This document shows, piece by piece, positions 39,701 through 63,026 of a DNA stretch of 64,000 bases. Source of the DNA: Elusimicrobia bacterium GWC2_64_44 (GTDB lineage Bacteria; Elusimicrobiota; Elusimicrobia; Elusimicrobiales; UBA9959); assembly GCA_001799845.1 (NCBI GenBank), contig MGUG01000035.1:717-64716 (forward strand), in the 5' to 3' direction. How positions within the stretch are numbered: the stretch's first letter is position 1; the number at the start of each line of letters is the position of its first letter. The notes below the pieces were generated by a model. That model was given only the letters and a program-made list of their open reading frames with translations. It did no database searches and was not told where the DNA came from. The position numbers and the translations under genes were made by a program.

Positions 39701-42700
39701 AGCGCTGACCCCGAGCCAGGCCTCGCCGGGCTGCCAGCCGGAGAGCCCCCAGTACCTGGAGTTATTGAGCGGATCGGTGCAGGTATTCTCGGGCGCCTGG
39801 GAAACGTCCTGCTGGATGCGGATCTGCACGGTGGAGATGCCGGCTGTAAAGTCCGCCGCCGTGCCGGCGATGCTGCTGACCACCATGTAGAAGGCGTTCT
39901 CCGTGGGCGGCGAGGTTATGGCGGAATCGGGCTGCATCAGGTCCAGCGTGAAAGTGGAATAGTTAAGGGCGAAAGCCGAATAGTTGCCGGCCCTGTCTGT
40001 CGCTTTCGCGCGCAGCAGGAAGGTGGCGCTGGAGCGCCCGACGGCCCAGGAGTCGCTGCCGGCGGCCTTGTTCTGGGGCAGCGCCGTCACGGTCCAGTTA
40101 GCGGAGGCGGCGGTGACGCTGGAAACATAGCCGGCCTGCCACAGGCCAGTGTTGAAGTTCCAGTAGCGGTTGGGCTTGGCGTCGGTGTCGGTCAGCTCGT
40201 ATTCTATCGTCGACAGCGCCGACGGTATGCCGCCGCCCGCCACGGGATCCTGCGCGGTGCCGGTCAGCGCCGAGACGGTCTGCCTGTAGGACAGGTGCGC
40301 GGGCTGGGCGATACCGGCCAGCGGCGTGCTGAAGTCCACCAGGAAGGTGGCGGTGGCGTAGAGGACCTCGGTGTTGGGGCCGCCGTTGACCGGCTGCGTG
40401 TTGTCCAGCGCCTGCGCCTGCACCTCGAAGCGGTAGCCGTCGGCGCTGTTGGCGCCGGTGAAGGCGCTGGCGGGAATGGATTTCAGCCACGGGCTCAGGG
40501 CGCCGTCGACGGCCATGAAATTCCAGACGCCGACGCTGGTGGTGGTCCAGGTATTGAGGCCCCAGTGATAATAGGTGCGAGCGCTCAGGGAGTCCAGGCG
40601 CGAGATGCGCATGCTGACCGAGGCCAGCCCGGACGCCACGCCCATGCCCGGGTCCGCCGCCGTGCCGGTTACGCCGGCGATAGGCGAGTTGAGATAGGCG
40701 CCGTCGGCCGGGTAGGTCACAGAGGAAACGGGCACGATCGGGTCCAGCGTGAAGAGGATCTCCGGGTTCAGCGGGGCCGCGGCGCCGGGCCGCGACCGGT
40801 TGCCGGCCAGGTCCTTCGCCCGGATATAGAGGCGGTATTGCAGCGAGGCGTTGGAAGCCAGCAGCGCGTTGAATTCCGCCACCAGGGCGGGGTCGGTAAG
40901 GCTCCAGACGCCGCCGCCGAGGGTGTCGGCGTTGCGCCAGTGAACGGCCTCGTTCCAGCTGGCGGCGGGGTCCCAGCCCGTGCCGTTCCAGTAGGTCAGC
41001 AGCGCGTTATCCTGCACGGCTATCTGTATGCCGGTGGCGGGGTCCAGGGCGCTGTACTGCTCGAGGAAGGTGCCGGAGATGGAGGGCAGGGCCGTGTAGG
41101 CGCGGTTGTTGCCCGGCATCGTTATCGTGGCCGTAGGCGCGGAATTGTCGTAGCAGAAGGAGCGCTCCTGGTACAGCTCCTGGTTGAAAGCGCGGTCCGT
41201 GGCGCGCGAGCGCACGGTATAGGTCGAGCCCTCGGTCAGCGCAGGGGGCCAGGTGTCCCCGCCGGAAGGGTAGGACCAGTTGGCGCCGGAGATTATATTC
41301 ACGCCTATGACGCCGTCGGGCACCTGCGCCACCGGGGTCAGGGTCGCGCTGCGCCAGTTGCCGGCGCCGGCGAAAGCGGAGCCGTTAAATGTGTTGCCGG
41401 CGGTGTCGGCGATCTGCACGTCCACGCCGTTGGGCGCGAGGCCGCTCATCGCCTCCACGGCGGGGGCGGCCACCCAGTCCGACGCGCCGCCGGAGAAGAC
41501 CGCGGCGCTGGAGGCGTTGTGGAAGGGGTGCGAGGGCGCGGTGATAGTGCTCGACGCGCGGTTGGTATCGAAGATCAGGTCGCGGGCGTAGACGCCGTCG
41601 GGCACCACGTTGCCGGCGTTGTCCGTGGCCTTGAGTTCCACGCGGAAGCGCTTGTTGAGCGGCCAGGTGGGCGGCGTATAGGACCAGGAACCCACGCCGG
41701 AGACGGCCAGCCAGGAAGAAGGCGTCACCTGCCAGGCCGACCCGTTCCACTTGGGTTTCACGGCGCCGCTCTCGGAGAGGTTAGAGATCTGGGTGAGCAC
41801 CGGCGGGACTATGCCGGCGGGACTGTCCACCGAGCTGCCCAGCAGGTCGCCGGTGGCGCGGGTGGGCCCGTAGAAGGCGCTGGCGGCGGCCATCGGCGTG
41901 GAGATGACGATGGACGGGTAATTGAAGTCAGAGGTCACCTTTATCGAGGAGAACGCCTCGGCGTTGCCCGCCTTGTCCAGGCCGGCCACGGCGATGAAGT
42001 ACTCGTGGTTATCCGTAGAGATGGTGGGCGGATCATAGGTAAGCGGCGGGTAGCGCCACGTGATGGTGGAGGCGGAAGAGGTGTAGTCCACCGGCAAGTC
42101 GGTGACCGTCATGGAACTCCAGCCGAGGGCGGCGGTACCGCGCCAGTAATAAACGTCGCCGGAGAGCACGTGCGAGATGCGCAGTTTCAGGCCGCCGGCC
42201 GCGGCCAGGCCCGACAGGCCGCCGAAGCTGGTGCCGGAAACCTCGGCCAGGCCGGCCTGGATGAAGCTGTTCGCCGTGGGCGTGGAGACCCTGGAGGTGG
42301 GCGGCGTGCCGTCCACCACGAAATTGTGCACGGTCCAGGGGTTCTGCTCGTTGCCGCCGCGGACGTCCATGGGCTCGGCTTTGTCGAAGGCGCGCACGCG
42401 CAGCGTATAGTCGCGGTCGGAGACCCAGTTGGCGCCGTCGAAGGGATAGCGCCAGGTATCGGAGCCCACGGCGTTCTGCCAAGCCCCGTCGAAGGTGACG
42501 GTCCAGGAGCTGAAGGCCGAGCCGGTCCAGTAATAGGTGGTCTCGCCTGCCAGGTAGCTCAGGTGGATCTGCGGCGTGCTGAGGAGCACGCCCACGAACG
42601 GCAGCGCCGTGTCGGCCGCGCTGCCGTTAAAAGCGTTATTGCCGGTCAGGCCGCCGGGCTTGTACTGCTGCTGGTGCAGCGGCTGCGTGATCACCGAGGT

Positions 42701-45700
42701 GGGCGGCGTCCTGTCCCAGATGAAGGTCCTGGAGGAGACGCCGTCGGTAAAGCCGGCCTGCAGGTTGGCGGCGAAGTCCAGCGCACGCACGTTCACCACG
42801 TAGTCCTTGCCTGACCCCAGCGCCGACTCCAGGTTGGGGTGGGCGTAGGACCAGGTATCCGTGCCGACGGCCACGTTGAATGTGGAGGCGGAGATGGCGA
42901 AGCCGCCCGAACCGTGCTCCCAGCGCTTGTCGGCCTGCACGTCGTAGATCTGCACCTCCACGGTGCGCAGGTCGGACTTGTAATTGGGCGAATACACGCC
43001 CAGCGGGTCGTAGGCGGTGCCGTTGAGGCCCGTCAGACCGCGCAGGACCTGCCTGTTGCCGGGGAAAGCCAGGTAGCCTGACGGCGGGGTAGTATCGAAC
43101 AGCACCTGGTACGAGGCCATGCTGCTCTCGTTGTTCTCGACGTTGCCGGCCTTGTCCTTGGGCAGCAGCAGCACCCGGTAGCGGCGGCCGTCCTGCAGGG
43201 CGGGATTTACCTGGGTGGCGGTGGACCAGTTAACGGTGATATCCGGGGTGTAACTGGTCTCCAGGCTGACGCTGTTGACCGAGAAACTCGAGCCGGTCCA
43301 GTAGTAACCGTTCTCCACGTCCTTGATCCTGATATAAACGGCGCCGCCGAAGCCCTGCTGCAGCGAGGGCTGCGTTATGTTGGTAGGGTCGCTCGCGGTG
43401 CCCCAGATCGCCGGCATCAGGTTTATGTTCGGAACGCTCGGGGACTGCACGACGCCGACCGGCTTGGTATTGTCTATGACCATGCGCCGCTCGGCGTTGT
43501 CGCCGGCCTCGGCGGCCGAGTTGTAAGGCGTGACGGTGACCGTGTAAGAGGCGTTGTCCACGGTGAAGGCCGCGGGGCCGTTGATGGCCTGCACCCAGGC
43601 GCCGCCGACGTGGCTGACGTAGGTATAGGTGTCGTAGCTGACCCACGACAGCGTGGGCTCGTACCACCAGGCCGTCGCGCCCTTGTCGCGCCGCAGGCGC
43701 ACCTGCACGCTGTCGGCGTCGCGCAGGTTGGAGCCGCTGCCCTTGATGTTGAGCATGTCGGCCGCCTTGAAGTTGCGGTCGTCGGGACCCATCGGGGTGT
43801 CGATGTAGGCCACGGGCCGCGGGGTCTTCAGCAGGAAATTCGTGTCCACGTTCTCGAACGCGCCCATCGACTTCTCGTTGTTGCCCTTGTCTATGGCCAG
43901 CGCTATCACGTCGTACTGGCTCTCGTTGATCCACGGGACCCCGGAGGTGTTCCAGGTCCAGGTGCTGGGCTGCGCCGGGTCGGAGTTGTAAGCCACGGTG
44001 GCCGTGGTGAACCAGATGCGGCTGTTCGGGTACAGGCCGCCGGGGCAGGCGGCGAAAGTATTGGTGACATTGTCGTAGCAGCGCGGCGCGCCGGTGCCGG
44101 TGTTCTGGCGCAGCGAGACCCTGACCATCCAACCGGCCTTCAGTTCGCCGGGGTAAGTGTCGTGCGCCGTACCGGAGATCGCCGACACCGAGGCCACCTC
44201 GCCTATGGGCACCAGCGCGCGGGAGGTGGGCGGCGTGGTGTCGCCGGTAAAGTAGTTGGTCGTGTACTGCGTTTCCATCTGGCCCAGGATATCGCGCACG
44301 CGGCTCATCGCGTAATAGGTGGTGCCGTCCTGGATGGCGCCGCCCGGCAAGCTGTAAGTCCAGGTGCCGGAGGAGGCGCCGGCAAAGACCGCCGCCTTCC
44401 ACTGGCGGGAAGGCTGCGTAAACGCCCCGCCGTCCCACCACAGGTTGCCGCGCAGTTCCTGCATGGCCACCTCGACGCCGGCGGCGAAAGTGCTGATGCC
44501 GGCCTCGTAATTCTGCGGCGCGGTGAAGGCCCTGAGATATTCCACGGAATCGTCCGCGGTGCCGTTGATGGCGGGTACGGCGCCGATGAAGCTGTTATGC
44601 ACCGGGAAGGCCACCTTGGAGGTCGGCGTGGTCATGTCCACGAGGAACGTGAAGCTGGAGTAGTACGCCCCGGAGACGTTGTTGAGGGCCTGGTCGCGGG
44701 CGTAACTGAAGAGCGTGTACTCGTAGCCGTCCTCCTGGGAAGCCGGGCTGACCACCTTGCTCCAGCTCAGGATGCCGCTGACGCCGAAAGTGTCGCCGGC
44801 GGCGGCGGCCCAGTTGTTATTGATGAAGCTCCAGTAGCTGTTGTCGGAGCGTTTGAGCTTCAGGCGGACCTCGCTGACGCCCGCTGGCTCGATGCCGGCG
44901 TCGAAGGCCGTGCCGGCTATCAGGCCGGTGGAAACGGCCAAAGCGGCGGCGTTCGGCACCGTGAAGTTGGTGCTCGGCAGCGTGGCGTCGTAGGTGAAGT
45001 AATAAGCGGCGGAGTTATCCGCGTTCAGGTTGGCGTCCACCTGCGCCTTGGAGGGCGAGGCCTGCCAGTTGCCGGCCTTGTCCCAGGCGCGGGTCCAGAC
45101 CGAGATCTTGTGGCTGTCCACCGTGACCAGCGAGGGCAGGGCCAGCGACCAGGCGCCGTTGGCGTAAGCGGCGGTGCTCCAGTTGACGTGGCTCACGGAG
45201 CTGTCGTCCCAGGAATTGGTCTCCCAGTTCCAGGTGGCGTTGAAGCTGCCGCGCGCCTTGACCAGCACGTGCACCCCGGCGATGACGCCGGTGTCCGTCA
45301 CCACGCCGTAAAGCATCGGGGCGCTGCTCTGGAAGGACACATTGACGGGAGACGTCGTGACAGAGATCGGGGCCTCGTTGTCGAACTGCACAATCCGGCC
45401 GGCCTCGGCGGGGATATCGGCCGTCTGCGGCTCGCCGACCGCGGGACCGAACTCTTTATTGAGGGCCAGGTCGTAAGCGTAGGTCACGAAGCGGTAGTTC
45501 TGCCGCTTGTTGGTGGCTATGGCCGACTGCAGCCCGGCAGGCAGCGCGTAGGTCCAGTTTACTCCGGGCTGACCCATGCTGTAAGGCGAGGTGTCGACGT
45601 AAGCCTCGAACCACGCGGGCGCCGGCTGGTCGAAGGCCGAGCCGCTCCACCAGTCGCCGCCTACCAGGCGGATGGCGACCTTTACGGTGTAGGTGCCGAG

Positions 45701-48700
45701 GGCGGACTCATAGACGCGCGCGGCGTAGCGTTCGTCGCTGGCCTGGCCCGAGACGAAGGGTATGGCGGTCACGAACTCGTCGGCCGGCGCCAGCACCGTG
45801 GACGTGGGTTTCTCCAGGTCGTATTTGACCGTGACGGCGGCGATGGCGGAATCGTTGCCGGCCAGGTCCGAGGTCCTGGCCTGGACGTAGTAGCGGTGGT
45901 CGTTCTCCAGCGGCAGGTCCCCGTCGTTCCAGTTCCAGGCGGCCGGGGTGCCCTGCGCGGGCAGCCACAGCGTACCGGCGCAGGCGGAGAAGGCGTTCCC
46001 GTCGAAACACTGGGAGATCTCGAGGTCGGAGATGGATACGGCGGCGGTGCTGGGCCCGGTGAAAGGCGCCGTCTGCGCGCTGGAACCGGTGCCGGCCAGG
46101 GGAGTGGAAACGAACACCCTGGAATAGGTGCGGGCGAGCGGGAAAGACAGCGAGGCCAGCGGCGGCGTTATGTCATACGTTACCGTATAAGTGGAGTAGA
46201 CCGAGGAATAATTTCCGGCGTAGTCCAGCGAGCGGGCCACGGCCGTATAGGCCAGGTCGTCCTGCAGCATGGCGGCCGGCACAGTGTAATACCAGGAGGT
46301 GGGCCCCAGTTTGGCCGTCGTGATCCAGTATTCCCCCGCCTGCCAGACCGAAGAGGCGTGGTTCCAGTAGCGCTCGCTGCCGACGGCGCCGGTGGAGATC
46401 TTGAGCTCGGTGCGGTTGATGCCCGAGATGTCGGCCGAGGCCGTGCCGCCTATGCCCGGCAGCGCCCGGACGGCGTTCTCCGTAGGCGTGGTGACAAGGA
46501 CGGCCGGCGGCGTATTGTCCACTATAAAGTAGCGCACGTTGGCGCCGCGCGCCTGCGGGTTCTCCCAGTTGCCGTCCCCGGAGTCGTCGGCCAGGCGCGC
46601 GTCGTCCATGGTCTTTATCTCGACCTTGTACTCGCGGTCGGTGGCGTCCCAGTTCACGTCGGTCAGGTAGACCCAGGTGCCGCCAGTTCCGGCCGGCGTC
46701 ACCTGCACCGGCTGCCAGGCGGCCTCGGCCCCGCTCAGGGTGAAGTTGGGCGGAGTCCAGTACCAGGTGTCGTTGCCCTGCAGGTAGGACAGGCGGATGC
46801 GGCCGTCGCTCAGGCCGGCGTTGTTCTGGCTGTAGGCGTTGTCGTTGGCCGAGCCCTGCAGGCGGGTGCTGGTGGCGCCCTTGCCGATATTGGCCGGCCT
46901 GTAGCGGCCGTTCACGCCGTCCAGGTCATCGGCCGGCAGCGTGAAGAGCGAGGCCGGCGGCATCTTGTCCATCTTGATCACGCGCGAGGAGACCGGCGCG
47001 GAGAACTGGTCCTGCTCGTTGCCGCCCACGTCGAGGCCCTTGGCCAGCACCAGGTACGCCAGGCCGCTGGTGCCTGCGGTAAAGCGGCTGTCGAGGCCGG
47101 AGGGCGCGTACATCCAGCTGGTGGCGTCCGGCGAGAGGAAGCCGCTGGTATTGCCCTTCAGGGCTATCCAGACCGGAGCCGCGCCGCCGGCCAGGAAGTC
47201 GGTGCCGTTGAACCACTGCGGCGGGGTGTCCAGCTGCTGCACGGCTATATAGACCTCGGAGTTCTGGAAATTGTCGAGCGCCGTGCCGGAAAGAGCTGCC
47301 AGCTGCCGCACGCCGCTGGCGTTGGCGTCCTGCGGCGCGCCTATGTTGGCGGTAGGCGACGTGATGTCTATAGTGAACTGGAAAGGCGCGGCGGAACCGT
47401 TGTTGCCGGCTTTGTCCGTGGCCACCAGTTCCACCACGTAGGTATGGTCGGGTTCGAAGGCCCGGCCGGCGGAGAAATAGTCGGTGGTATAGGTGAGCAG
47501 GCCGGTCTTCAGCGTATCGTTCCAGTTCAGCGAGGCCGTGAGGTTGGTGAACGGCGGCGCCGCGGCGGTGAAGGTGGAGGCCTGAGTGTTCCAGAACTCC
47601 TCAGCGCCCTGGCGCTTGACCCTGAAGTAGGCGGAAACCACGGTGCCGGGGGAGGTATCGGCCACGGTGCCGGCCAGCGCGCCCAGGGAGCGCAGGTAGA
47701 CCTTGTTGGGCATGGTGACGCCGGCGGACGGGTTGGTGATGTCCAGCACGAACTCGCGGCCGAGGGCAGGCGTTTCGGCGAGGCCGTTGGTGTGGGAGGC
47801 CTTGGAGGCCACGCTATAACGCCTGTTGCCGTTCCACGCCGGCACGGTCAGGGCCCAGCCGGGACCCGGGAAGGTATTAACCCCGACGTAGCCGGGAGTG
47901 ACCGCCCAGGCGGTGGTGGTAGAGACCCAGCTCACACCGCTCCAGACCAGGTCGTCGTTGCCCTCGCCCAGCTTAAGGTCGGGGCCGTAATCCAGTATGC
48001 GCACGGCCACGGTGGTGGCGTAGACGGCGGTACCCAGGATGGACGGTATGGTGTCGGCCCGGTAATGCGGCACACCGGCGGGCGGGGTATTGATGGAGGA
48101 GACCGGCGGCGGCGGGAACAGCTTGAACTGTATCAGAGCGGAATCGGGCAGGGCCTGGCCCGGCTTGGGGACCTCGTTGGCGGCCTGGTCCACCGCCTTG
48201 GCGAAGATCTGGTACTGCACGCCGGTCATCTCGGTGTACCAGGTGGGCGAGGACGGCCCGGTGGCCTGCCAGGAACCGCCGGCCACGGTCGTCGCGTCGT
48301 AGAATTTCTCCGTCCCCAGGTCCCAGGCGCCTGTGACGTTGTTCCAGTACTTGCCGGCGCAGACGCTGTCCACGCAGTAGTAAGAGATGCTCACCTTGTC
48401 CAGCGTGCCGGGCGCGAAGTCGGAGGCGGAACCGGAAATAACGGTCAGCTCGGAATGCACGTCTACGCCGTGCGTCGGGTAGGTCACGGTGGAAACGGGG
48501 TTAGTGAAGTCGGCCTTGACGGCCGTGGCGGTGGCGTAGACCAGCTGGTAGTTGCCGGCGCGGTCGCGCGCCCAGGCGTCCACCTCGTAGGTCTCGCCGC
48601 TCTGCCACGGCGCGGTATTGAGCTGCCACCAGGTGCCGCCGGAGCTGAGGGTGCCGTAGCCCAGCACGCTGTTCTCTATGGCGCCTACGGCCCAGGAAGA

Positions 48701-51700
48701 CCCGGCTATGCTCCAGTACTTGCCGGCCTCGGCGCCGGCGGTCTGCTTAATGCGCACCTGGATATCGTAAACGCGCCCGTTGGGGCGGTCGAAGGAGCCG
48801 CCGGTGATCTTGCCGGTCTGGCTGATATAGCCGTTGTTGTACGGGTAGAAGATGGCCGCCGTCGGGCGCGTGACGTCGTAGATGAACGAGGATTTCAGCC
48901 CGTAGCCTTCCTGGTTAAGGGCGGCGTCGCCGGCGTTGGTACGCACGTAGAAGATCCTGCCGTCATTGCCCGCGAACATGGCCGGGTTGATGTCCCAGGT
49001 CCAGTTGGCGTAGGGAGAGTTGGCGCTGAGCTGCTGCGGCGTGGCGCTCCAGCCGTTGACGCCGTTCCAGTACCAGCCGTCGGAGTCGCGCGTAACGTAG
49101 AGGGACAGTTCCGAAACGCCGGAAGAGCCGGGGTCGTAGCTGGTGCCCTGCACCTGGCCCGGCAGCGTGTTGAGGTGCTGCGCTTCGGAAGGCACCGTAA
49201 CGGTGGAAACGGGGGCCTCGCTATCGTAGAGGAACGTCGCCGTGGTATAGACGGTGTCGTAGTTGCCGGTTATGTCTACCGCGCGGGCGCGGATGCGGTA
49301 GGAGGCGCCGCTGGTCCAGGTGGAATCCTGGATGTTATAGGACCAGGTGGAAGAGGTGGTCCAGACGGTCTCCGTGACGGGCAGCCAGGGCGCGGCGTTC
49401 TCCTGCGCGCCGGGCGCAGACCAGGGCGGGTTCAGCGCCGGGTTGTAGTATTTATTCAGCGAGGTCATGAACACCGTGATGCGGGTGCTGGCCACCTTCA
49501 GGTTGTCGCCGGAAGTACCGCCTATCACGGGCAGGCTGTTATAGCTGGGCAGCACCGGGGCGGTGAAGTAGCTGACCGGCTTCTCGTTGTCGTAGCGGAT
49601 CGTGACGCCGTTGGCGGGCGGCACGTCGGTATCCAGCGGCTGGCCGCTGTTGGGCCCGTATTCCGGGTTGAGCGCCAGGTCGTAGGAGAAGGGCACTATG
49701 CGGTACTGGGAATTCTGGTTCAGCGGGTTGGTCAGGTAAGTGACCATGCCGCTCGGCAGGGAATAGACGAATTTGCCGGTATTGATGCCAGTGGTGGTCA
49801 GGTTCGCCTCGTACCACTTCGGGTCGGTTCCGGTGAAGTCGGTGTCGTTCCACCACCCGAGCTCGGCGCCGGTCAGGCGCTTGAGGGCCACCTTCACGGT
49901 ATAGGTGCCCAGGTCGGCCCGGTAAGTGTCGGCGAAATCCGCGGCCGTGCCGAGGATCTGCGTGAAGCCCGTGGTATAGCCGGTCAGGGGATAGGTGATC
50001 GTGGAAGTAGGCGTGTTGAGGTCGTACTTCACGGTCACGGCGGAAGGCGCGGACTCGTTGCCGGCGAAGTCGACGGCCTTGGCCTCTATCTTGTACTGGC
50101 GGTTGCCGGAGAAGGTCAGGAAGGCGCTGTTGTAGGTCCAGTTCGCCGGGGCGCCCTGAGCCGCCAGCCAGAAAGGACAGGCCACGAAGAACGAGCCGTT
50201 AAAACAGGTGGTGTTGCCCAGGTCGGTGATCTGCAGAGTGACCCCGCTGACCTTGGCGTAGGTCTCGGCCTGGTCGTCCTGGTTGGACGTGCCGGCGAGA
50301 GGCGTGGAGAGTTTGATGCCGGAATAGGCGACGCCCTGCGCCGGGTGCGCGACGGCCACGTACGGCGCCACCGTGTCGTACACGAACGTGTAGGTGGAGT
50401 AGAGCGAGGAATAGTTGCCGGCGTAGTCCTTGCTGCGCACGTCGGCGGTATACGCTTTGTCGTCGACCAGGATAGACCCGGGCAGCGTGTAATACCAGGA
50501 GGTCGGCCCTTCTTTAGTCGTCTGTATCCAGGTCTCTACGGTCTCGGTCCAGGCGGAGCCGCTCCAGTAGCGGATGCCGGTGCCCGTGCCGGTGGAGAGC
50601 CGTATCTGCGTGAATTCGTGGCCGGCCAGGTCCGCGTTGGCGGTGCCGTAGATCGTGAAGGGCGTCTTCTGCGCCAGGGCCGTAGGGGAGGTGATCAGCA
50701 CCGCGGGCGGCGTGCCGTCCACTATGAAGGTCCTGGTGGTATAGGCCGTCTCCCAGTTGCCCTCCCCCCCGTCGTTGGGCAGGCGCGCGTCGTCCATGGC
50801 CCGGGCCTGCAGGCGGTACTCCCGGTCCTGGGCCGGCCAGTTTATCGCCGTGTAATAGTCCCATGACCAGCTGGGAGCCGCGCCGGAAAGGTCCGCGTCG
50901 GCCCAGGAAGTGACCTCGGTCACGGTCCAGGAACTGAAGGCGGCGCCGGTCCAGTAATAGGTGTCTCCGGACTGCAGGTAGCTGAGGCGCACCTGCACCG
51001 TATTCACGCCCGCGCTGGTGGAAGCGGGCAGGTCGAACGCGGAACCGCGGAAATACGAGCCGGCCTGGCCTATCGCGAGCGGGTGGTAGCGGCCGGTAAC
51101 CCCGCCGGCGTCGTCGACAGGGCGGGAGATGGAGGAACCGGGCTTTTCCTTGTCCACGCGGACGATGATGGAGGAGACGCCCACGCCGAACTGCGTCTGC
51201 AGGTTGCCGGCGGTATCGGAGGAACGGACCAGCACGAGGTAGTTGAAGCCGGAAGCGAAGTCGTCGTCGAGGCCGGCCGGGGCGTAGGCCCAGCTGGTGG
51301 CGTCCGGGGACAGGAAGCCGTTGGCGCCGGTGATCCTTATCCAGCTCGGGTTGTCGCCCGACACCGTGAAGTCGGAGCCGCTGTACCAGCGCTGCGGGTC
51401 GGCGTACTTGCGGATGGCGATGTCCACCGCGGCGTTGCTGTAGGCGTCCTGCGCGGTGCCGGAGAGGGCGGGCAGCGTGCGTACGCCGTTGCCGTTGGCG
51501 TCGCCGGGCGAGGAAATGCCCGCCGACGGAGGGGTCCTGTCCACCACTATGCGTTTGCCGATGCCGGGCGGGATATCGGCCGCCTGCGGCTCGCCGGAAT
51601 TGGGGCCGAACTCGCGGTTGCTGGCCAGGTCGTAGGACCACGGCACCAGCCAGTAAGCGACGCCCTCATTGGCGACAAGGTCCATCTCGGACTTCATGCC

Positions 51701-54700
51701 AGCCGGTAGAGTGTAGGTGAAGTTCACCGGGAAATTGCCGGCCGCCGTGTCGGTATAGGTCTCGTACCAGGCCGGCTGCACGCCGCCGAAGTCGGCGCCG
51801 TTCCACCAGCCCGCCGGCGCGCTCACGCGCATCACGGCTACCTTGACGGTATAGGTGCCCAGCTTGGCCTCGTAGGCGCGCCCGCCGTACTGTTCGTCCG
51901 TGGCCTGGCCGCGCAGCTGGCCGAAGCCGGTGGTAGAGCCCTGCAGCGGGTAATTTATGGTCGAGGTCGGACGCTCCAGGTCGTAATTGATGGTGGCGGT
52001 GACCGGCGCGGATTCGTTGCCGGCGAAGTCCACGGATTTGGCACGCACTATGTAGCGGTGGTCGTTGACAAAGACCAGGTCCGGGTCATTGAAGGTCCAG
52101 TTGGCCGGGTTGCCCTGCGCGCCTTGCCAGACGGGGCAGGGCGAGAAGCCGGCGCCGTTGAAGCAGCCCGGGGCCGTCAGGTCTTCTACCTGCACCGTCA
52201 CCGTGCTGACAAGCGAGTAGGGATCCGTCTGATCGGCCTGGTCGGAGGCGCCGACGGCTTCGGTGGAGAGCTTGACGTGCGAGTAAGTCCCTCCTTCGGC
52301 CGGATGCGACATCGAGACATGGGGCGCGACGTCGTCGAAGGTGAAGTTATAGGTCGAATAGAGCGTCGAGTAATTGCCGGCGCTGTCGAGAGTGCGGGCC
52401 TCGGCGGCATACGGCATGTCGCTGGCCAGCATGGCGCCGGGCAGGGTGTAATACCAGGAGGTAGACCCCTGCTTGACGGACTGGATCCAGGCCGCGGGAT
52501 CGTTGCCGTCGGCGGTCCAGCCGGCGCCGGACCAGTAGCGGGTGTTCACGCCGGAACCGGTGGAAACGCGCACGTAGGTCTTATCGTGGCCGGACTTGTC
52601 CGCGTTGGCGGTACCGTAGATGGTGAAAACGGCCCGCTGCGCCGGAGCGGTGGGCGAGGTGACCAGCACCGCCGGCGGGGTGGTGTCGAGCACTACCTCG
52701 TAAACGGTGCCGAAGGCGCCGGAATTCTGCGGCACGGCGTTGTCTATGCCGCGCACGGCCACCATGTATTTCTGGTCCGAATAGAAGTTCGCCGAAGGCA
52801 GGGTATAGTCCCAGTTCGGAGGCGTAAAGGCGTCCGGCTGGAAATCGGAAGGCGTGGAAGACCAGGAGAGGCCCGTCCAGTAATAGGTAGTGCTGCCCTC
52901 CAGCCTGCCTATCTGCACCCGCAGGTTGGCTACGCTGTCGACCCCGGCCGGGGTATCCGAGGCGAGGCCGCTTATGGTCCAGGCGGACCCCGGGTTCACG
53001 CTGCCGTTCCCGTCGCCGTCCTCATAGCCGGTTATCGACGCCGCCGGCGGCTGCACGTCCCAGACCATGGTGAACGAGGATTCGTCGAGCACGTAGGTTT
53101 GCTGGGTGTTGCCCTGCGGGAGCGCGGTGTCGCGGGCCCGCACGCGCAGTATGTACGAATAGCCCTGCGTGAAGGCGGCCGGCGGCGGCAGGAGCGAGTG
53201 GGTCCAGGAAGAGATCGCAAGGCCGGGCGCGTGGATGGTGGAAGTGCCCCAGTAGACTTCTGCCTCCTGCGTCTGGGCAGCGTCCCAGGTACCGGTGTTC
53301 CACTTCCAGTAGCGCAGCGCGTCGCTGCCCTGCGCGGGCCGCTTGATATGCACCAGCACCTTGTCCAGTTTGCCGACGGCGCCGCCGGGGCCGGCCACGT
53401 CCCAGGCTGTGCCGTGCAGCGCGTCCAGCGAGGACCGGACATTGCCGCTGACCGCGGTGACGGTGGAGTTGACGGCGATATAATCGTCGAGCTGCGCCAC
53501 CGGCGAACTGCGGTCCACGATGAAATCCACCGCCGCGCCCAACTGCTGGTTGGTGGCCCGGTCGCTGGCCCTGGGCGTAATGCGGTAGCTGCCGCCGTCG
53601 GTCCAGGCCGGCAGGTTCACGCCGAGCGACCAGACCGTGCCGGCCACGGTAGTAGTGGACCAGACTATGCTGTCCTGCCACGCGGTGGTGACCGGGTTCC
53701 AGTAGGTGGTGGACTGCGACAGGTCCTGTATGGCTATCTCGCTCTTGTCCAGCAGGCCGGGCGAGACGTCCGAGACGGCGCCGGACAGCTGCGGCAGGCG
53801 CTGGTAGATCAGCGCGGCCGGCACGCCCACGGCTATCGAGGGCGGCGTCGCGTCATAGACTACGGTATTGCCCACCAGGTCTATAAGCTGCTCCTCGCCG
53901 GCGGTGCCGTAACCCTTGGAGAGGAAGTAGTAGGAGGTATTGTCGGTCCAGGCCTCCGTGGAAATGTTCGTATCCCAGTCCCAGTACAGGCTCGAGTCGC
54001 CCAGGATGGAGACGTTGGAGGCGTTATGGTACGCGCGCGGGGCGGCTTCCGCGGAACCCGGGGCGGAGAAGGAGCTGCCGTACCAGTAATAACCGTCGGT
54101 CTTGCGCTCCACGGAAACCTTCACGCTGGAGACCGTGGAGAAAGTGAACTTGGAGGCGCCGCCGGATACCACCTGGGGTTTCGCCTTCATGTGAGAGGTG
54201 TTCGCCGGCGCGCTGATCCAGGTGCCGGGGTACGGCGCGGTGTAGTACATGTTCTTGCGCCAGACCGTGGACTCGGTGTTATTGGCCTTGTCGCGGGCGT
54301 GGGCGCGCACCGAGTACCAAGCGTTGTTCCATTGCCAGACGGTATCGGGCACGTCGTAGGACCAGTTCCCGCCGGTTATGGTCACCGAGGAGACCGGCAC
54401 CCACGAGGTGGAATTATTCTGCCAGCTCTGGCCGTCGTAGGTCCAGGTGATGGCGCCGCCCTGGCCGCTGGGGCTGTAGCCGAACTGCAGGAGGATATTG
54501 TTCAGTTCGCCCGGCGCGGCGTCGAACGCGGTGCCGGTGACCTGCGGCAGCGGGATCTCGCCGTAGGAAAGCCCTTCGCCGGGCACGGAGATGGTGGACG
54601 AGGGCGCGGTAAAGTCGGCCTTGATGGCGGTGACCGTGGAATAGACCGGCTCGGCATTGCCGGCGCGGTCCATGGCGTACGAGTTCATCTCGTAGGTCTC

Positions 54701-57700
54701 GCCGGACTGCCAGGGCGTGGTAGCAAGCTGCCACCAGGTGGCGGAGGGGCTCAGCGTGCCGTAAGAGGTAACGCTGTTCCAGACCTCGGGCGAATTTTCC
54801 ACGGTCCAGCTGGAATCGGACACGCGCCAGTAATGGTCGGCCTTGGGGCCGGTCAGCTGCTTAATGCGCAGCTTGATCTCAGTGGTCACGCCGAAGGGTT
54901 TGTCGTAGGCCTCGCCCGTCACCTTGCCGGTCTGGCTGATATAGCCGTTATTGTACGGGTAGGTGATGGTATTGGTCGGGCTCGTGACGTCGTAGACGAA
55001 GGTGGACTTGACCGAGGGTGTTTCCTGGTTGGTCGCGCGGTCGGTGGCCCAGGAGGTGACCGTGTACTGCTCGCCGTCTATATAGGCGGCCTCGCCGTCC
55101 ACCAGGTAGGTCCAGTTGGCGTAAGGCGGCGAGCCGGGCAGAGGCTGCGCCGGGCCCCAGCCGATACCGTTCCAGTAGTCGCCGTTGGACTTGCGCAGGT
55201 AGAACTTAAGGTCGTTAACCCCGGAGAAAGCGTCCGAGGTGGAGCCCAGCAGGGTTATCTGCTTGGCGGCCAGCGGCAGGTGGGCGTTGTTGGCCGGGTA
55301 CGAAACCGCGGAGCCGGGGATCTCCGTGTCGAACTGGAACGTGGCGGTGGCATAGGTCACGTCCCAGTTGCCGTACTCGTCGCGGGACCTGACGCGGACG
55401 CGGTAATTAGCGCCGCTGGTCCAGGAGGAGTCCTCTATGGTGTAAGTCCAGGTGGCGGAGGTGTCCCAGACCGTCACCTGAGGAGTTATCCACGGGGCGT
55501 CGTTGTCCGAGGCGCAGGTAGTGTCGTTCCAGGCCCCGCTCAGCGCCGGGTCATAGCACTTGCCCTGGTTATAGTTCATCATGCTGAACTGCACGGCGTT
55601 GGCGCCGGAGTTATCGTCGGCGTAGCCGGACAGGGTAGTAAGCGTCCTGTAGGCGACGGCCGACGGCGAGGTAATGACGCTGACCGGCCGCTGGTTCAGG
55701 AAGTCACGGGTGGAATACACCACCGAGTAGTTGCCGGCGTAATCCAGCGCGCGCGCGGATACAGTATAAGTGGCCTTCTCCACCAGCATGGACGGGGAAA
55801 CGGTGTAGTACCAGGAGGTCGGCCCCATCCTGAAGGAGTCGTTCCAGGTTTCAGGCTCGGTAACCCACTGGGTCAGCGCGGCGCTCCAGTAGCGCGTGGT
55901 GCCGCCGGTGCCGGTGGAAATGCGCACCTGCGTCTTGCGGAAACCGGCTATGTCCCCGTCGGCGCTGCCGTAGATATTGGTGTTGGCGTTCAGCGACAGC
56001 TCCGTCGGCGTGGTGATGGCCACGGCGGGCGGCGTGTCGTCGACAATAAAGCGCTTCGTGTTGGCGCCGGTGACGGCCGTCTCCCAGTTGCCGTCGGTGC
56101 CGCCGTTGTAGGGGCGCGCGGCGTCCATGGAGCGGCTTTCCAGCTTGTACTCCCTGTCCCCCGCGGGCCAAATGATATCGGTGGGATACAGCCAGGAACC
56201 GGAGCCGGAGGCGTCCCTCCACGACACGGAACCCGCGGCGGTGCCGGAGCTGAAGACGGCGCCCACCCAGTACCAGGTGTCGTTGGAGAGCAGGTAGGAC
56301 AGGCGGATCTGGCTCTTCTCCACGCCGGCGTTGTTGGCGGCGTAGAAATTATCCAGCGCCCCGCCGTAGAAGCGGGAAGAGGTGCCGGACTTGCCGATAC
56401 TGGCGGATTTGTAGCGGCCGCTCTCGCCGTCGCCGTAGTCGGCCGGCAGCGTGATCGAGGTTGCCGGCGGCTGCTTGTCCACGTAGATCACGCGCGACGA
56501 GATATTTACGGCCAGGTCCTCCTGGATATTGCCGGCCACGTCGGTGGAGCGCACCAGTATCAGGTACTTGAGGCCGCCGGTCATGGCGGTGTCGAGGCCG
56601 GCCGGGACATAGGCCCAGCTGGTGGCGTCCGGTGACAGGAAACTGCCGCCGCCGGCCACGTCCCGCCAAACCGGCTCGGCCTGCAGAGAGTTAAAGCCGG
56701 CGCCGTCGTACCAGAGCTGCGGGCTGCCCCACTGGTGCACGGCTATCTGCACGCCTTCGTTGCGGCCGTTGTCCGAGGCCGTACCGGAGATCTGCGGCAG
56801 GGCGCTGACGCCGGAGGCGCCTGTGGGCAGCAGTATCCTGGCCGTCGGCGAGGCGGTGTCAATGGTGAACTGCTGGTAAGGCGCCGGGAAATATTTGGCG
56901 CGGTTGGCCTTGTCCGTAATGCGTGCCTGCACCTCGTAGGTGCGGCTGTTCTCAAAAACCGGCAGGCCGGTGTTGAGATACCAGTATTCCAGCGCGGAAT
57001 CGAAAGCCCCGTCGTCGGCCACGGTCTGGAGCCAGGTCACGGAAGCCTCCCAGCTGTCGCCGTCCCAATAGTAGGTGCCGGCCAGCGTGGAGATGGCCAC
57101 CTCGACGTTCTGCACCTTGCCCTCGCCGGAGTCGCTGGCGGTACCGTAGATGGAAGGCAGGCTGCGCTCGTACACGGCGTTGGGCTCCACCAGGGTGCTG
57201 GCCGGGTCGTCGCCGTCGATATAGAAATAGCGCTCGGAGAACGGCGTGAGCTCCAGCGTGGCGTCGGCGGCCGCGCGCACCTTCAGGCTGAAGCTGTTGG
57301 TGCCGGCGGGCCAGATGCCGGTGATGTTCTTTGACCATAGCCCGCCGCCCACGCTGTCCACGCCGAAGTAACCGCACGAGGCAACGCCGACTTCGTAGGA
57401 CTCGTCGGTGCAGCCGGCGAGGTAGGTGGCGGTGGAGATCCAGCCGCCCGGGGTCCAGACCTGGTCAGGCTCGGCGGTAAGGTTGGTGATCATCACCTGC
57501 GCCGTAGTGGCGGCGGCCAGGGAGCCGTTTATAAAGCTCAGGTCCGCGGGCCTGTAATACGGGATGCCTCCGAGGGGCACGGATATGGACGAGTCCGGCA
57601 TCGGCGTTATCTTGTTTATCCTTATCAGGGCGGAGCCGGTGGGCGGCGTGGTAAAACCGGCGTAGCCGGGGAAGGTGGTCTTGTTCCCGACGGCGTCCAT

Positions 57701-60700
57701 CGCGCGAGCGAAGACCAGGTAGGTAAGGCCGTTCTCCAGGACCGGGATGCTGGACCCCGTCACGGTCCACTGCACCGGCGTGGCGGTATTGGTGGAAGCT
57801 TCCACGAAGGCCGTGTCCGGCGGCGGGTTGACGTCGTCGCCTACGTCGAAGGTGCCGACGGAGGCCGGGTTCCACCACTTGCGGGCCGTAAGGCTGAAAT
57901 AGGCCACGTGGACGTGCTTGATGGCCGTGTAGGAGTCCTGGGCCGTGCCGGCCACGGTGTCGAGCACGTAGACATTCTCGGAGGCCGGCTGCTGTATCAG
58001 CGCGGCCGGGGTGCTCTTGTCCACTTTAAAGGTGTTGCGGTTGCGGCCCTGCACAAAGATGGCTTCGACATTGGGTTTTGGCCCGTTGTCTTTATCCAGC
58101 GCGCTGTCCATGGAGCGGACACGCACGTGGTAGGAGCGGCCGTCCGCGGCCGCCGCGAACAGCGAGGCCGTATTGTAGGAATAGGTGCTGTCGGCGACGT
58201 TGGGCATGTCCTTCCAGGTGGCCGCCGAGCCGCAGGTGCCGGAATAGTCGGTGCCGTTCCAGCAGGTGTTCTCAAGGTCGTCGCGGATCTCCACCTGCAT
58301 GCCGCTGACGCTGCCGCCGGAGGCCAGGCCCGCGAGCGGCAGGTCGGTGGCGGTGCCTAGCACGGAGGCCAGCTGGTAGCCGGGCTGGTTGCTGTACCAG
58401 TTGTCGTTGAGCGGGCTCAGCAGCGTGGAAGTGGGCGGCTGCACCTCGTAGCGGAAAGAGAGCTTCAGCGTTTCGGAGGAGCCCTTGTTGCGGTAGTCCT
58501 CGTCGGGCAGGTCCACGTTGTCCTGCGACCAGGCGTAGACCAGGAACTCGTCGGCCGTGGGCACCGGCACCGGCGGGTGGCCGGGGTAATCCACGTCGGA
58601 CCAGAAGCCGCCCATGCTCTGGTGGGCCCAGTCCAGCGCCGGGGCCTGGCAAGAGTCGTCGCGCTCGTTCTGGGGCATCCAGCCGGTGCCTGTGCCGGTC
58701 CACCATTTCAGGTCCGACAGGCGCTGCACGCCTATGCAGGTCAGGTTCAGGCCGGCCTGGCGCGTGGTATCAGGCATGTCCTTGGCCGTGCCGGCGATGT
58801 TGGTGAGCTCGGTGTCCGAATAAGTGCCGCCGGGCAGCGGGTTAAGCACCTCGGTGGCCGGCGGCGTGGCGTCGTACTTGAAGACCACGGTGGAATAGAC
58901 GGTGGCGTAGTTGAGCGCCTTGTCCCGGGACTTCGCCACCAGGGTGTATTCCTCGCCACTGGTCCACTTGGCGGCCTCCTGTGTTTCGGAGGACTGCCAG
59001 ACATCGAAGGGGACGGTGGTGGTGGTGGCCGCCAGGTTCCATATAGAATCGGTCTGGGACACCCAGTTCTTAAGCGGCTTGCTCCACTTGGAGAGGTTTT
59101 CCGGGAATTCGAGCGAATACTCCACGCTGCCCACGCGCGAGATGGGGTCGTTGGAGGTGCCGATGAGCGCGGTCAGGGAGCCCAGGCCGTACTTGCCGCC
59201 GCTCACGGGGAACTGGATCTTGTTGGTAGGGGCGGTGCCGTCGTAGTAGAAGTAGCCGCTGGTGGCAGGGGAGAGCGCGGTGCCGGTGGAATTGCCGGCT
59301 GCGTCCTCGGCGTAAAGCGCCACGCTGTACCAGTAGCCGTCCTGCCAGTTGGTGGAGATGGCGATGCTGTAGCCGAACGGGTCTCCGGCGGGGGCGTACT
59401 GCGCCGAGGCGAACGTCGGCGCCGGCGAGGCGCAGGCCGAACCCCACTTGGTGCCGCCGCCCTGCTCGTAGACGCAGTAGCGCACCCAGCGCTTGCCTAT
59501 GACGGGGTCCACCACGTTGTCGGTGATGGCGCCCTCCAGCAGCGTCACGGAGTTCTTCCAGACGTTGGCGGGGTCGGCCAAGCTTACCGGGCCCTCCGGA
59601 TAGTCCATCGGGTCCATCAGGGGGCTCGGGCTGGTGACCGTCACGGTGGGCGCGCTCAGGTCGTAATAGAACTCGCGGTTGCTGCTGGCCGAACCCTGCG
59701 AGAAATAGTCGCCCTGGCGCTGCGCGATGCGGTACTTGCGGCCGTCGGTGAAAGTGGGCAGCTTGGCGTGCAGCACATTGTCCGGCACGCTCTTGACTAT
59801 GGTATCTATATTCTTATAGGTACACTCCGTGCCGCAGGAGAACTTGGTGATCTCTCCGGGCGGAGACGGGATCTTGACCATGTAGTACCAGGTGGCGGCG
59901 GCCTGGAAACCTGTGGCTGTAAAACCGGTCCAGTACTGGTCGTTCAGGTCGAAAACATTGTCCACGGAATCGCGCAGCTGCATCTCTATGTACTTGATGC
60001 CGGAGGCCGTGTCGGTGGATTTGCCCTGTATATAGGGTATGCTTTTTTTGCTGGAGTTGGCTTCGGGGAAAGAGAAGTTGCCGTCCGAAGGGGTCTTGTC
60101 CACCGTGAAGACCACGGGGTTGGACGGCGAGCCGAAGCCGCGGTCGTTGGTGCGGCCGCGCGACTCTATCTGGAAAGTCTGGCCACTGGCCTGGGCTACC
60201 GCGTCGTTGTACCAGCCGGTATGGGTCCAGCTCGCGACGCCGCCGGTGACCTGTATCCACTGCTGGCCGTAAACGCCGGGGTCTATATAGGCGTCGGCGC
60301 CGTTCCACTGGAAACCTGCCTGGGCGCCGCTGAGCAGCGTCACCCGCACCTGCGGGGCTATGGACGCCTGGCCCGCGGCAGGGGCGAAGCTGGCCGTGCC
60401 GGTTATGGAGGCGATACCGCTGGAATAGGAAATCGGCTCTACCGGGTAAGTAAGTTCCGAAGAGGGCACCGTGACGGTGGCGATGCCCACCTTTAGCACC
60501 TCGCGGGCGTCGTAGTTGATGACGCGCATGTCCATCGGTCCGGCGGAGACGGACTGGTCCACAGTGAAGTGGACGCTGACGGTGACGCTGGTAACGCCTA
60601 TCGGGGTCATGCTGGTGACGGTGACGCCGTCCAGCGGTTCCCCGTTGCGCTCGAAAGAGAGCGAGGGCGTCGGGTTATTGAAGAGGTTGGTGCCTGTCAG

Positions 60701-62104: not shown

Positions 62105-62737
62105 TTATTTTTTCGGCAGCGTCTGCAGCGCGTTGCCGGCCCAGAGCGCCGTTTTGGCGTCCTTGCCGGCCTTCAGCGCGTTCAGGGCGGCGCGCGCCCT
62201 GGCGGTACCTGTCTTGGCCAGGCTGTTGACCGCCGCCTTGCGCACCAGTTCGTCCTTGTCCTCGGCGGCGGCCTTGCGCAGCGGCTCCACGCCGTCGTCC
62301 GACTTAAGCCTGCCCAGCACCTCGGCCGACTTCAGCCGGGTATTGCGGTCGGCGTGGGACAGCAGGGCGCCCAGGGTCTTGGCCGCGCGCTTGTCGCCCA
62401 GGTCGCCCAGGGCGTCTATCAGCGGCAGGCGGGTTTCGTCGCCGGCCGCGGCCAGTGCGTCGGTAAGGGTTTTGTAGGCGGTCTTGTCGCCGGACTTGGC
62501 GAGCAGGCGGGCCGAGCGCTCGCGGACCTCGGGGTCCTTGTCGGCCATGGCCCGCTTGAGCAGTTCCGGCTTGCGCTGGTCCTGCATCCCGGACAGCTTG
62601 TTCAGGGCCTTGCGGCGCGTCTTGAAGTCGCCATCTGCCAGCTCGGCCTCGACCGAGGACAGTTCAGCCGACTGCTGGGCGGCGGCGAACACGGCGGGGA
62701 GCGCTATTAATATTACAGTAAATAGTAGTCTGTGCAT
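62105..62737 (-). CDS. periplasmic HEAT-repeat protein, translationally coupled to the giant gene
   Basis: I prefer the ATG at 62737 (MHRLLFTVILIALPAVFAAAQQ signal peptide) over the ORF-track start at 62953, which runs through an AT-rich non-coding-looking stretch. HEAT/PBS-lyase-type repeats: DPEVRERSARLLAKSGD, DETRLPLIDALGDLGD, DRNTRLKSAEVLGRL, DKDELVRKAAVNSLAKTG. The stop TAA (62105-62107) lies 6 nt before the giant-gene ATG (62098). Confidence 0.75.
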   Translation of the reverse strand: MHRLLFTVILIALPAVFAAAQQSAELSSVEAELADGDFKTRRKALNKLSGMQDQRKPELLKRAMADKDPEVRERSARLLAKSGDKTAYKTLTDALAAAGDETRLPLIDALGDLGDKRAAKTLGALLSHADRNTRLKSAEVLGRLKSDDGVEPLRKAAAEDKDELVRKAAVNSLAKTGTARARAALNALKAGKDAKTALWAGNALQTLPKK

Positions 62738-62806
62738 AGGCAAACAAAAAACGACCAGACCTTGCCCAGGCGTTTTTTTCCAGGGGCAAAGCACGGATAT
62801 TAAACC

Positions 62807-62834
62807 ATTATAATATAAATTAATTGTTTCGCAA
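62807..62834 (-). promoter_or_regulatory. possible proximal promoter (TTGCGA-16 nt-TATAAT) in an AT-rich patch
   Basis: On the minus strand the -35 is TTGCGA (62834..62829) and the -10 is TATAAT (62812..62807). The AT-rich context could produce this by chance. Confidence 0.3.
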
Positions 62835-62951
62835 ACGTTAAACGCGCGTGAACGACCGCCGGATACAATACAGCATCCTTCTCCCCTTCCGGGCAGACCG
62901 CCATAATATCCACGCGCCGTCACGGCTCTGGACATTTCGCCTCCCAGGCCC

Positions 62952-63026
62952 AAAAAAAGGGCCGTTTCTGCTCTCTTCGCCTCAACCCGGTTCTGGGCTG
63001 ATACCCCGAAGACAGCGGAAACGGCC
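62952..63026 (-). terminator. terminator-like hairpin about 50 nt downstream of aptamer B (candidate expression platform)
   Basis: On the minus-strand RNA, GGCCGUUUC (63026..63018) pairs with GAAACGGCC (62968..62960). C-U7 follows immediately (62959..62952). The enclosed loop of about 49 nt may add further pairs. Confidence 0.4.

Follow-up and report, generated by a model that had tools for sequence, protein, structure and literature searches.

The titin A-band contains 7- and 11-domain super-repeats and nebulin contains 7-domain super-repeats; in titin, the 11-domain super-repeat matches the thick-filament period. SiiE, MpIBP and LapA-like adhesins are type I secretion system (T1SS) substrates that carry C-terminal RTX repeats and no Sec signal peptide. 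Here, we describe a giant gene in a 64,000-nucleotide stretch of DNA from Elusimicrobia bacterium GWC2_64_44 (contig MGUG01000035.1, positions 717 to 64,716 of the forward strand; hereafter the window). The 45.4–57 kb region of the window appears to be the younger half of a stalk of 65 immunoglobulin (Ig)-like domains in a giant, probably cell-surface protein of this groundwater bacterium. The stalk is likely built on an 11-domain super-repeat, having grown by the copying of multi-domain blocks and been trimmed by the loss of whole domains.

Protein repeats mostly expand by several domains at once and in the middle of the array, and selection against aggregation may favour such multi-domain expansion (Björklund, Ekman & Elofsson 2006; PMC1553488). 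In periscope proteins, highly identical repeats drive rapid length change; frequent intragenic recombination in these proteins depends on highly identical DNA repeats, and they are an exception to the dissimilarity that usually holds between adjacent domains (Whelan et al. 2021; PMC8201768). One account of MpIBP gives it ~120 repeats and describes them as identical (PMC4083281). Elusimicrobia are credited with a high propensity for proteins >5,000 aa in work on huge proteins (PMC11573180; West-Roberts et al. 2023, bioRxiv 10.1101/2023.11.21.568195).

The giant gene and its Ig-like array

The gene and its stalk are located as follows.

21713-62098, minus strand: giant open reading frame (ORF) encoding 13,461 aa, with no internal stops
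35249-60466, minus strand: array of Ig-like domains D1-D65 (aa 545-8950)

The array was parsed with a hidden Markov model (HMM) that was seeded with a single domain and iterated over the giant protein itself. The model converged on 65 tandem, contiguous domains of ~125 aa each (range 113–167 aa), which were numbered D1 to D65. Their assignment as Ig-like also draws on AlphaFold2 and Foldseek results (see below) and on weak Pfam matches. Across the giant protein, Pfam detected the bacterial Ig-like families Big_13, Big_3_2, Big_3_3 and Big_3_4, together with a C-terminal FlgD_ig; the scores of Big_13 (46.5 bits) and Big_3_2 (32.7 bits) exceed the cut-offs as whole-protein sums, with no individual stretch passing. 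The protein is enriched in Ala, Thr, Ser, Gly and Val.

Cassette copies within the array

A 65 × 65 global identity matrix of the domains has a median of 26%, a 95th percentile of 33% and a maximum of 61%. Twenty-one domain pairs share ≥40% identity (40–61%), and 19 of the 21 lie in collinear runs of three to four domains, as against a mean of 0.36 and a maximum of 8 collinear pairs in 10,000 shuffles of the domain order (p ≤ 1e-4). These runs are D10-12/D24-26 (48, 54 and 49% identity), D10-12/D35-37 (53, 50 and 48%), D13-15/D29-31 (43, 42 and 60%), D21-23/D26-28 (61, 52 and 50%), D21-23/D37-39 (53, 47 and 47%) and D24-27/D35-38 (51, 42, 54 and 41%). Self-BLAST of the giant protein likewise returned off-diagonal blocks of 365–414 aa with 42–49% identity (E-values of 1e-81 to 1e-105). 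Neighbouring domains share on average 27% and at most 38% identity, and the members of every pair at ≥40% are separated by at least five domains.

Eight strong domain classes emerged from the identity matrix: a (D10, D24, D35), b (D11, D25, D36 and, more distantly, D47), c (D12, D21, D26, D37), d (D22, D27, D38), e (D23, D28, D39), f (D13, D29), g (D14, D30) and h (D15, D31). Each of several classes has a trait of its own, including a disulfide loop in the paired-Cys domain d, an insertion of ~30 aa in e, the motif GFLSPDATSW in a and YPYNNGYISQTGK in h. Profile HMMs built from the positional orthologues of each domain and scored against all domains recovered classes a to h and added three more, x, y and z. 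All 11 classes retain their own length, insertions and motifs across copies and lineages. With these letters, the stalk from D7 onwards can be written as follows.

54605-58009, minus strand: D7-D15, x y z a b c f g h, first copy of the super-repeat, without d-e
52676-54604, minus strand: D16-D20, diverged domains, placed by profile scores and by class-specific motifs in alignments
51530-52675, minus strand: D21-D23, c d e, ending at a non-canonical e/a junction with D24
48500-51529, minus strand: D24-D31, a b c d e f g h, the most complete block
47357-48499, minus strand: D32-D34, x y z, ~31% identical to D7-9 and with strong orthologues in all relatives
45371-47356, minus strand: D35-D39, a b c d e
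35249-45370, minus strand: D40-D65, older, weakly periodic part of the array, recognized by lag-11 autocorrelation and a permutation test

The first copy carries SFLSPDATSW in a, GPTSWYYT in c and YPYNNGYISQTGK in h. Of the diverged domains, D19 is a degenerate form of a and D20 of b, both with motifs specific to these classes; D18 is x-like. D21-23 is the youngest cassette copy, given its identity to D26-28.

Marker peptides had drawn attention to this region. In an earlier note made from the letters of the window, they were taken to delimit cassettes A-B-C, D-E and F-G-H copied in nested fashion, and these cassettes correspond exactly to classes a-b-c, d-e and f-g-h. The nested reuse is real, and the off-diagonal blocks beyond single-domain periodicity, whose absence the note had named as contrary evidence, are present in both the self-BLAST and the identity matrix. 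All markers were recovered in the giant ORF, on the minus strand, no more than about 25 nt from where the note had put them: G(P/S)TSWYYT at 55825, 52468, 50509 and 46306, and YPYNNGYISQTGK at 54961 and 48847. GFLSPDATSW had been counted three times; it is exact at 51319 and 47143, and the copy at 56644 reads SFLSPDATSW (one mismatch). The three paired-Cys loops exist as proposed (CFNGAGFSPC at 52165, CFNGSFFVAC at 50206 and CFDGNAFSAC at 46009), except that the third departs from the given CFNG. The identity of copies, judged by eye as 50–65%, measures 40–61% per domain. Strong copies do fill the 45400–57000 interval to which the note had confined them, but weaker and older ones reach as far as 58.0 kb on one side (D7-9) and 35.2 kb on the other (D40-65).

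Two other accounts of the junctions were rejected. D13 was considered as a d/f chimera marking the deletion of d-e, but it aligns over its full length with class f, and its cysteine pair is placed differently from the class d cysteines, which rules the chimera out. Since D13 is a full-length f domain, the D12/D13 junction (~55.69 kb) lies at or near a domain boundary. A single five-domain tandem duplication for D21-25 does not fit either, as D24 (class a) is unlike D29 (class f) and D19-20 resemble a-b only remotely.

Domain order in related loci

A protein search with D21-D31 retrieved ten homologous fragments and no more; each came from Elusimicrobia or 'bacterium F11'. The housekeeping protein adjoining in the window has identical copies on groundwater metagenome scaffolds. 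Scans of genome and metagenome collections yielded five loci, of which L007 and L008 come from a single population (4808 of 4809 residues agree); the independent longer loci are L005 (Elusimicrobiales STC_50), L006 (Elusimicrobia bacterium clean1135), L007 and L009 (Ga0209212_1001364). Every domain of each locus was mapped onto the window domains.

L005 is collinear with D15-D60 at a median identity of 88%, and L009 is collinear with D4-D58 at a median of 59%. The order in L009 includes a-b-c-f-g-h, D16-20 and c-d-e, followed by a-b-c-d-e-f-g-h-x-y-z-a-b-c-d-e. L006 is collinear with D1-D20 and then passes directly to D26-D48, so that exactly five domains, D21-25, are missing. L007 displays a regular 11-domain period: D1-6 precede two full units of x y z a b c d e f g h, a partial unit x y z a b c d e and, after that, D40-D58. 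Positional orthology of this kind also holds for the fragments P0002, P0004, P0005 and P0006. The short homologue P0008 retains only D15, D32, D33, D43, D44 and D60-65.

Two observations concern single relatives. The fragment P0001 (838 aa, on a JGI contig of 3,140 nt) has the order c d e a b c, after which comes an f domain nearer D13 (48%) than D29 (29%); this order is absent from the window, L005, L006, L007 and L009, and represents either another cassette variant or a chimeric short contig. In L006, one in-frame stop at 7577-7579 interrupts the orthologous giant gene within the conserved GPTSWY*T motif of D12, with the frame open for 3,979 aa beyond it. A sequencing error could account for this stop, as could a recent nonsense mutation or read-through.

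An eleven-domain super-repeat

Most simply, the cassettes are pieces of one 11-domain unit, x y z a b c d e f g h. When the mean similarity rank of domains was plotted against domain lag, the sole outstanding peak was at lag 11, with a mean rank of 0.74 for D24-65 of the window and 0.79 for the L007 order, as compared with 0.35–0.63 at other lags; weaker rises occur at lags 22 and 33. The signal is also found in D40-65 alone, which holds no strong paralogues (mean rank 0.72; permutation p = 0.0002, or p = 0.0006 after taking the maximum over lags 1–13). These old domains are more similar to same-phase than to other-phase young domains (Mann-Whitney p = 3.6e-5), and profile scores identify weaker in-phase relics among them, namely D46 for a, D47 and D58 for b, D49 for d, and D41 and D52 for g. 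The window departs from the cyclic order in the first copy, which lacks d-e, and at D23/D24, where e is followed by a and the periodic order would place f g h x y z after e.

The alternative that best withstands these data is independent cassette shuffling, in which a-b-c, d-e and f-g-h are separate modules that were variously inserted, without a fixed period. The window does show abc+fgh, cde, abcdefgh and abcde, P0001 adds a D13-like f after c d e a b c, and out-of-phase junctions occur in P0008. However, the cyclic order holds except at the c/f and e/a junctions, L007 carries the full 11-domain unit in tandem, the lag-11 periodicity reaches into D40-65, where recent copies are absent, and one whole-domain deletion from a periodic array yields each observed combination. 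We therefore regard shuffling as unlikely. The different combinations in which the earlier note saw the cassettes copied are real, and they are better read as one periodic unit altered by deletions and duplications of whole domains.

A further reading takes the 11-domain period as a maintained structural ruler, a bacterial molecular ruler, and not only as a fossil of growth. It is based on the retention of length, insertions and motifs by each class across copies and lineages. The stalk could then pack against a periodic partner with a repeat of ~11 domains, such as a self-associating fibre, an S-layer-like lattice or a sheath. We hold this to be rather improbable.

Age of the copies and selection

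Bootstrapped neighbour-joining trees were constructed for each class or block from three to five genomes, and they group domains by position and not by genome. In the a+b tree, D10-11 form a clade with 100% support (four genomes) and D35-36 one with 99% (five genomes); support for D24-25 is 84% with L007 and 100% without it. The clades of D37-39, D21-23, D13-15, D29-31, D7-9 and D32-34 each have 100% bootstrap support. Because these clades are positional across genomes, all duplications visible in 45.4–57 kb predate the split between the window and L009, between which orthologous domains today share ~59% identity; the cassette copies were already present in the ancestor of at least five sampled lineages. 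The most recent event is that relating D21-23 and D26-28.

At the DNA level, paralogues are 54–71% identical. No direct DNA repeat of >100 nt above 75% identity was found in the region, and Tandem Repeats Finder reported nothing there. The best short DNA matches (64–72% over about 50 nt) span domain boundaries, including all b/c boundaries. Identity at third codon positions between paralogues (47–69%) lies close to the level in unrelated domain pairs (50%). Synonymous sites are thus saturated, and paralogue dN/dS is uninterpretable. The paralogue ratios (0.4–1.06) were accordingly dropped as meaningless, and omega between orthologues was used instead.

Between the window and L005, orthologue omega is 0.05–0.37 over all 46 domains and 0.05–0.23 in D31-53, where dS is unsaturated (0.2–0.5). 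Each cassette copy is thus under purifying selection. Selection on the copies had been claimed in the earlier note and is borne out by the orthologues; the paralogue dN/dS test proposed there proved uninformative because of saturation. The accompanying claim that the expansion is old, and neither slippage nor an artefact, agrees with the lack of similar DNA repeats, the order repeated in L005 and L009, and the positional clades.

Divergence between the window (37277-54979) and its closest orthologue, L005 (473-24298), is mosaic along the gene. dS is 0.2–0.5 (87–96% amino acid identity) over D31-53, and 0.65–0.9 (50–85% amino acid identity) over much of D15-30 and over D54-56. This mosaic suggests recombination between lineages within the gene.

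Concerted evolution would be another source of the observed identities: intragenic gene conversion would maintain similarity, so that 40–61% identity under-estimates the age of the copies or orthology is blurred. Class c is indeed ambiguous, since the c-d-e block that L009 has at the D26 position joins the D21 clade with weak support (60%) and the first c of L007 is nearest the D37 clade; the two- to four-fold variation of dS between the window and L005 also suggests recombination. On the other side, the a+b, f+g+h, x+y+z and D37-39 clades are positional with 84–100% bootstrap support in three to five genomes, which is the opposite of grouping by genome, and DNA identity between copies over >100 nt is now at most 75%. 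Concerted evolution is therefore a very improbable explanation. That the cassette copy number is wrong or very recent can scarcely be credited: the window was assembled from a metagenome and repeats are well known for causing misassembly, but recent slippage and assembly error are excluded by the absence of similar or tandem DNA repeats, the saturated synonymous sites and the identical domain order in independent assemblies from other sites (L005 and L009).

Growth of the stalk and order of events

We propose that in-frame duplication of multi-domain blocks enlarged the stalk and that whole-domain deletions then trimmed it, with d-e lost from the first copy and the e/a junction created at D23/D24. 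Both would most plausibly have occurred by unequal homologous recombination between paralogous domain DNA while it was still similar. Since then, purifying selection has acted on each copy, which has evolved separately as a positional orthologue, and whole cassettes still distinguish related lineages. Block duplication automatically yields low identity between neighbours, and the literature leads one to expect that dissimilar neighbours would make misfolding between domains and renewed recombination less likely.

With bacterium F11 as the root, the tree of D42 and D44-48 has the topology (L009,(L007,(L006,(window,L005)))), with 100% support at all nodes. On that tree, the window-type arrangement is ancestral, and the gap in L006 is a derived five-domain deletion between two c domains.

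Several observations weigh against growth by block copying and trimming on a regular 11-domain unit. The x y z assignment of D16-18 is weak, and D16-17 were assigned to no class. Some homologues, such as P0008, have out-of-phase junctions. The present copies share only short stretches of 64–72% DNA identity at domain boundaries, and recombination as the mechanism is inferred. L009, which is basal on the D42-48 tree, has the window-type arrangement. Finally, the first c-d-e-f-g-h-x-y-z block of L007 branches outside the matching D26-34 clades of all five genomes; it would be an ancient extra copy lost twice (the same six domains), a fast-evolving lineage-specific duplicate, or the product of segment exchange between lineages. 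A single clean evolutionary scenario was sought and given up, as the data cannot be reconciled without parallel loss, rate acceleration or segment exchange.

Fold, predicted export and neighbouring genes

An AlphaFold2 model of D26-28 (c-d-e), computed from a 10-row alignment of paralogues and homologues, consists of three beta-sandwiches with a mean predicted local distance difference test score (pLDDT) of 89.7 and a predicted TM-score (pTM) of 0.72. Foldseek matched this model in the PDB to tandem Ig/FnIII stalks with E-values of 3e-8 to 1e-5 and 12–15% identity. The top matches are 6xi3 (extender of a large adhesion protein), 2yn5 (SiiE), and 5irb and 4p99 (MpIBP), with E-values of about 3e-8 to 1e-6; others are titin FnIII tandems (8bnq) and GhpA (9fls). 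The giant protein probably acts as a long extender.

Outside the stalk, the following features were recognized in the giant protein and next to its gene.

31019-35065, minus strand: second array of ~11 domains of another ~120-aa type (aa 9012-10360), outside the cassette system
21716-22075, minus strand: C-terminal ~120 aa, a beta-sandwich resembling FlgD_ig and type IX secretion system (T9SS) type A sorting domains
19634-21250, minus strand: immediately downstream, PorV/PorQ-family outer-membrane protein with C-terminal TPR (tetratricopeptide) repeats (NF033709, 111 bits; cut-off 90)
17291-19243, minus strand: after the PorV/PorQ-family gene, 650-aa protein with FliG middle and C-terminal domains plus TPR
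62105-62953, minus strand: HEAT-repeat protein upstream of the giant gene
10000-11907, minus strand: HEAT-repeat protein further downstream

By inspection, the N-terminus of the giant protein resembles a Sec signal peptide (MTAWVNKLKGAAGLKSLAAALLLALPALSPLPAGA followed by ADV). The C-terminal domain scores 30.2 bits against FlgD_ig (cut-off 27), 22.2 bits against TIGR04183 of the T9SS type A sorting group (cut-off 23) and 15.1 against PF18962 (cut-off 27). No GGxGxD (RTX) motif occurs anywhere in the giant protein, and among the flanking ORFs scanned within the window there was no match to T9SS machinery. Sec and the T9SS-like sorting domain at the C-terminus would mediate export, which the PorV-like protein encoded next door may handle, and the neighbouring genes could form a dedicated export or anchoring module. 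From these sequence features, the giant protein is predicted to be a Sec-exported surface fibre with a T9SS-like sorting step, in which the Ig array is the extender.

Neither Pfam nor NCBIfam matched the N-terminal 545 aa (the head), and the C-terminal 4,500 aa, including the ~3,000 aa between the second array and the sorting-like domain, matched no family of either apart from the C-terminal domain itself. An AlphaFold2 model of the head from a 2-sequence alignment was unusable (pLDDT 36.7). The head also varies among relatives. L005 (473 to ~4550; aa 1-1360) has an N-terminal region of ~1,360 aa and five Ig domains that are unrelated to the window head and D1-14, and it joins the collinear part at D15; the heads of P0004, P0007 and P0008 differ as well, with Kelch-type families in P0008. 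The stalk is conserved among the relatives, and the heads are swapped.

Five long antisense ORFs of 1,500–3,000 aa lie opposite the giant gene on the plus strand (21716-30724, 31106-35836, 37862-42814, 43610-50866 and 52058-56635). They are most likely shadow ORFs arising from 65% GC and strong codon bias, and not genes. GC skew on the plus strand stays positive throughout the giant gene.

Significance and comparison with known systems

The giant gene is an unusually clean bacterial case in which the history of growth is readable domain by domain. Its 11-domain super-repeat is at least five periods deep, and the copies are old, with positional orthologues in several lineages. The cassettes are natural units for structure prediction, as c-d-e already reaches a pLDDT of 90, and methods for inferring tandem domain duplications could be tested on the gene. 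Multi-domain duplication is already the established main route of repeat expansion, so no new mechanism is involved; what the analysis adds to the earlier note is the 11-domain super-repeat and its history across lineages.

The mid-array expansion of the giant protein in blocks resembles the multi-domain repeat duplication described previously (PMC1553488). As in other systems of this kind, the autocorrelation has a fixed lag, with neighbours dissimilar and distant in-phase domains similar. Its period of 11 equals that of the titin A-band by coincidence. Unlike titin, the giant gene is bacterial and intron-free, all its classes belong to one Ig-like family and not to an Ig/FnIII pattern, and no periodic partner is known. 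The likeness to titin is thus one of evolutionary mode only, with homology going no further than the shared fold class (12% identity by Foldseek).

The giant protein shares the bacterial Ig-like extender fold, the beads-on-a-string organization and the very large size of SiiE, MpIBP/MpAFP and LapA-like RTX adhesins, and its stalk is probably an extender as well. It differs from these T1SS adhesins in having a signal-peptide-like N-terminus, no GGxGxD motif, a T9SS-like C-terminal domain and a PorV-like neighbour. Its domain copies are 26–61% identical, in contrast to the MpIBP repeats, given as identical. The homologues, all from Elusimicrobia or 'bacterium F11', fit a phylum prone to huge proteins. 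The portions of the huge-protein surveys used here do not describe a cassette or super-repeat structure, and the Omnitrophota giants presented in them have other domain content (HEAT repeats, dockerin, enzymes) (PMC11573180; bioRxiv 10.1101/2023.11.21.568195).

With the periscope proteins, the giant protein shares a tandem-domain surface stalk, predicted in this case, whose length varies by whole repeats among relatives. The contrast lies in the copies. The identical repeats of periscope adhesins alter copy number rapidly, whereas copies of >100 nt in the giant gene have at most 75% DNA identity, neighbouring domains share at most 38% of their residues, and only lineages that diverged deeply are seen to differ in copy number. 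The giant gene follows the usual rule of divergence between adjacent domains.

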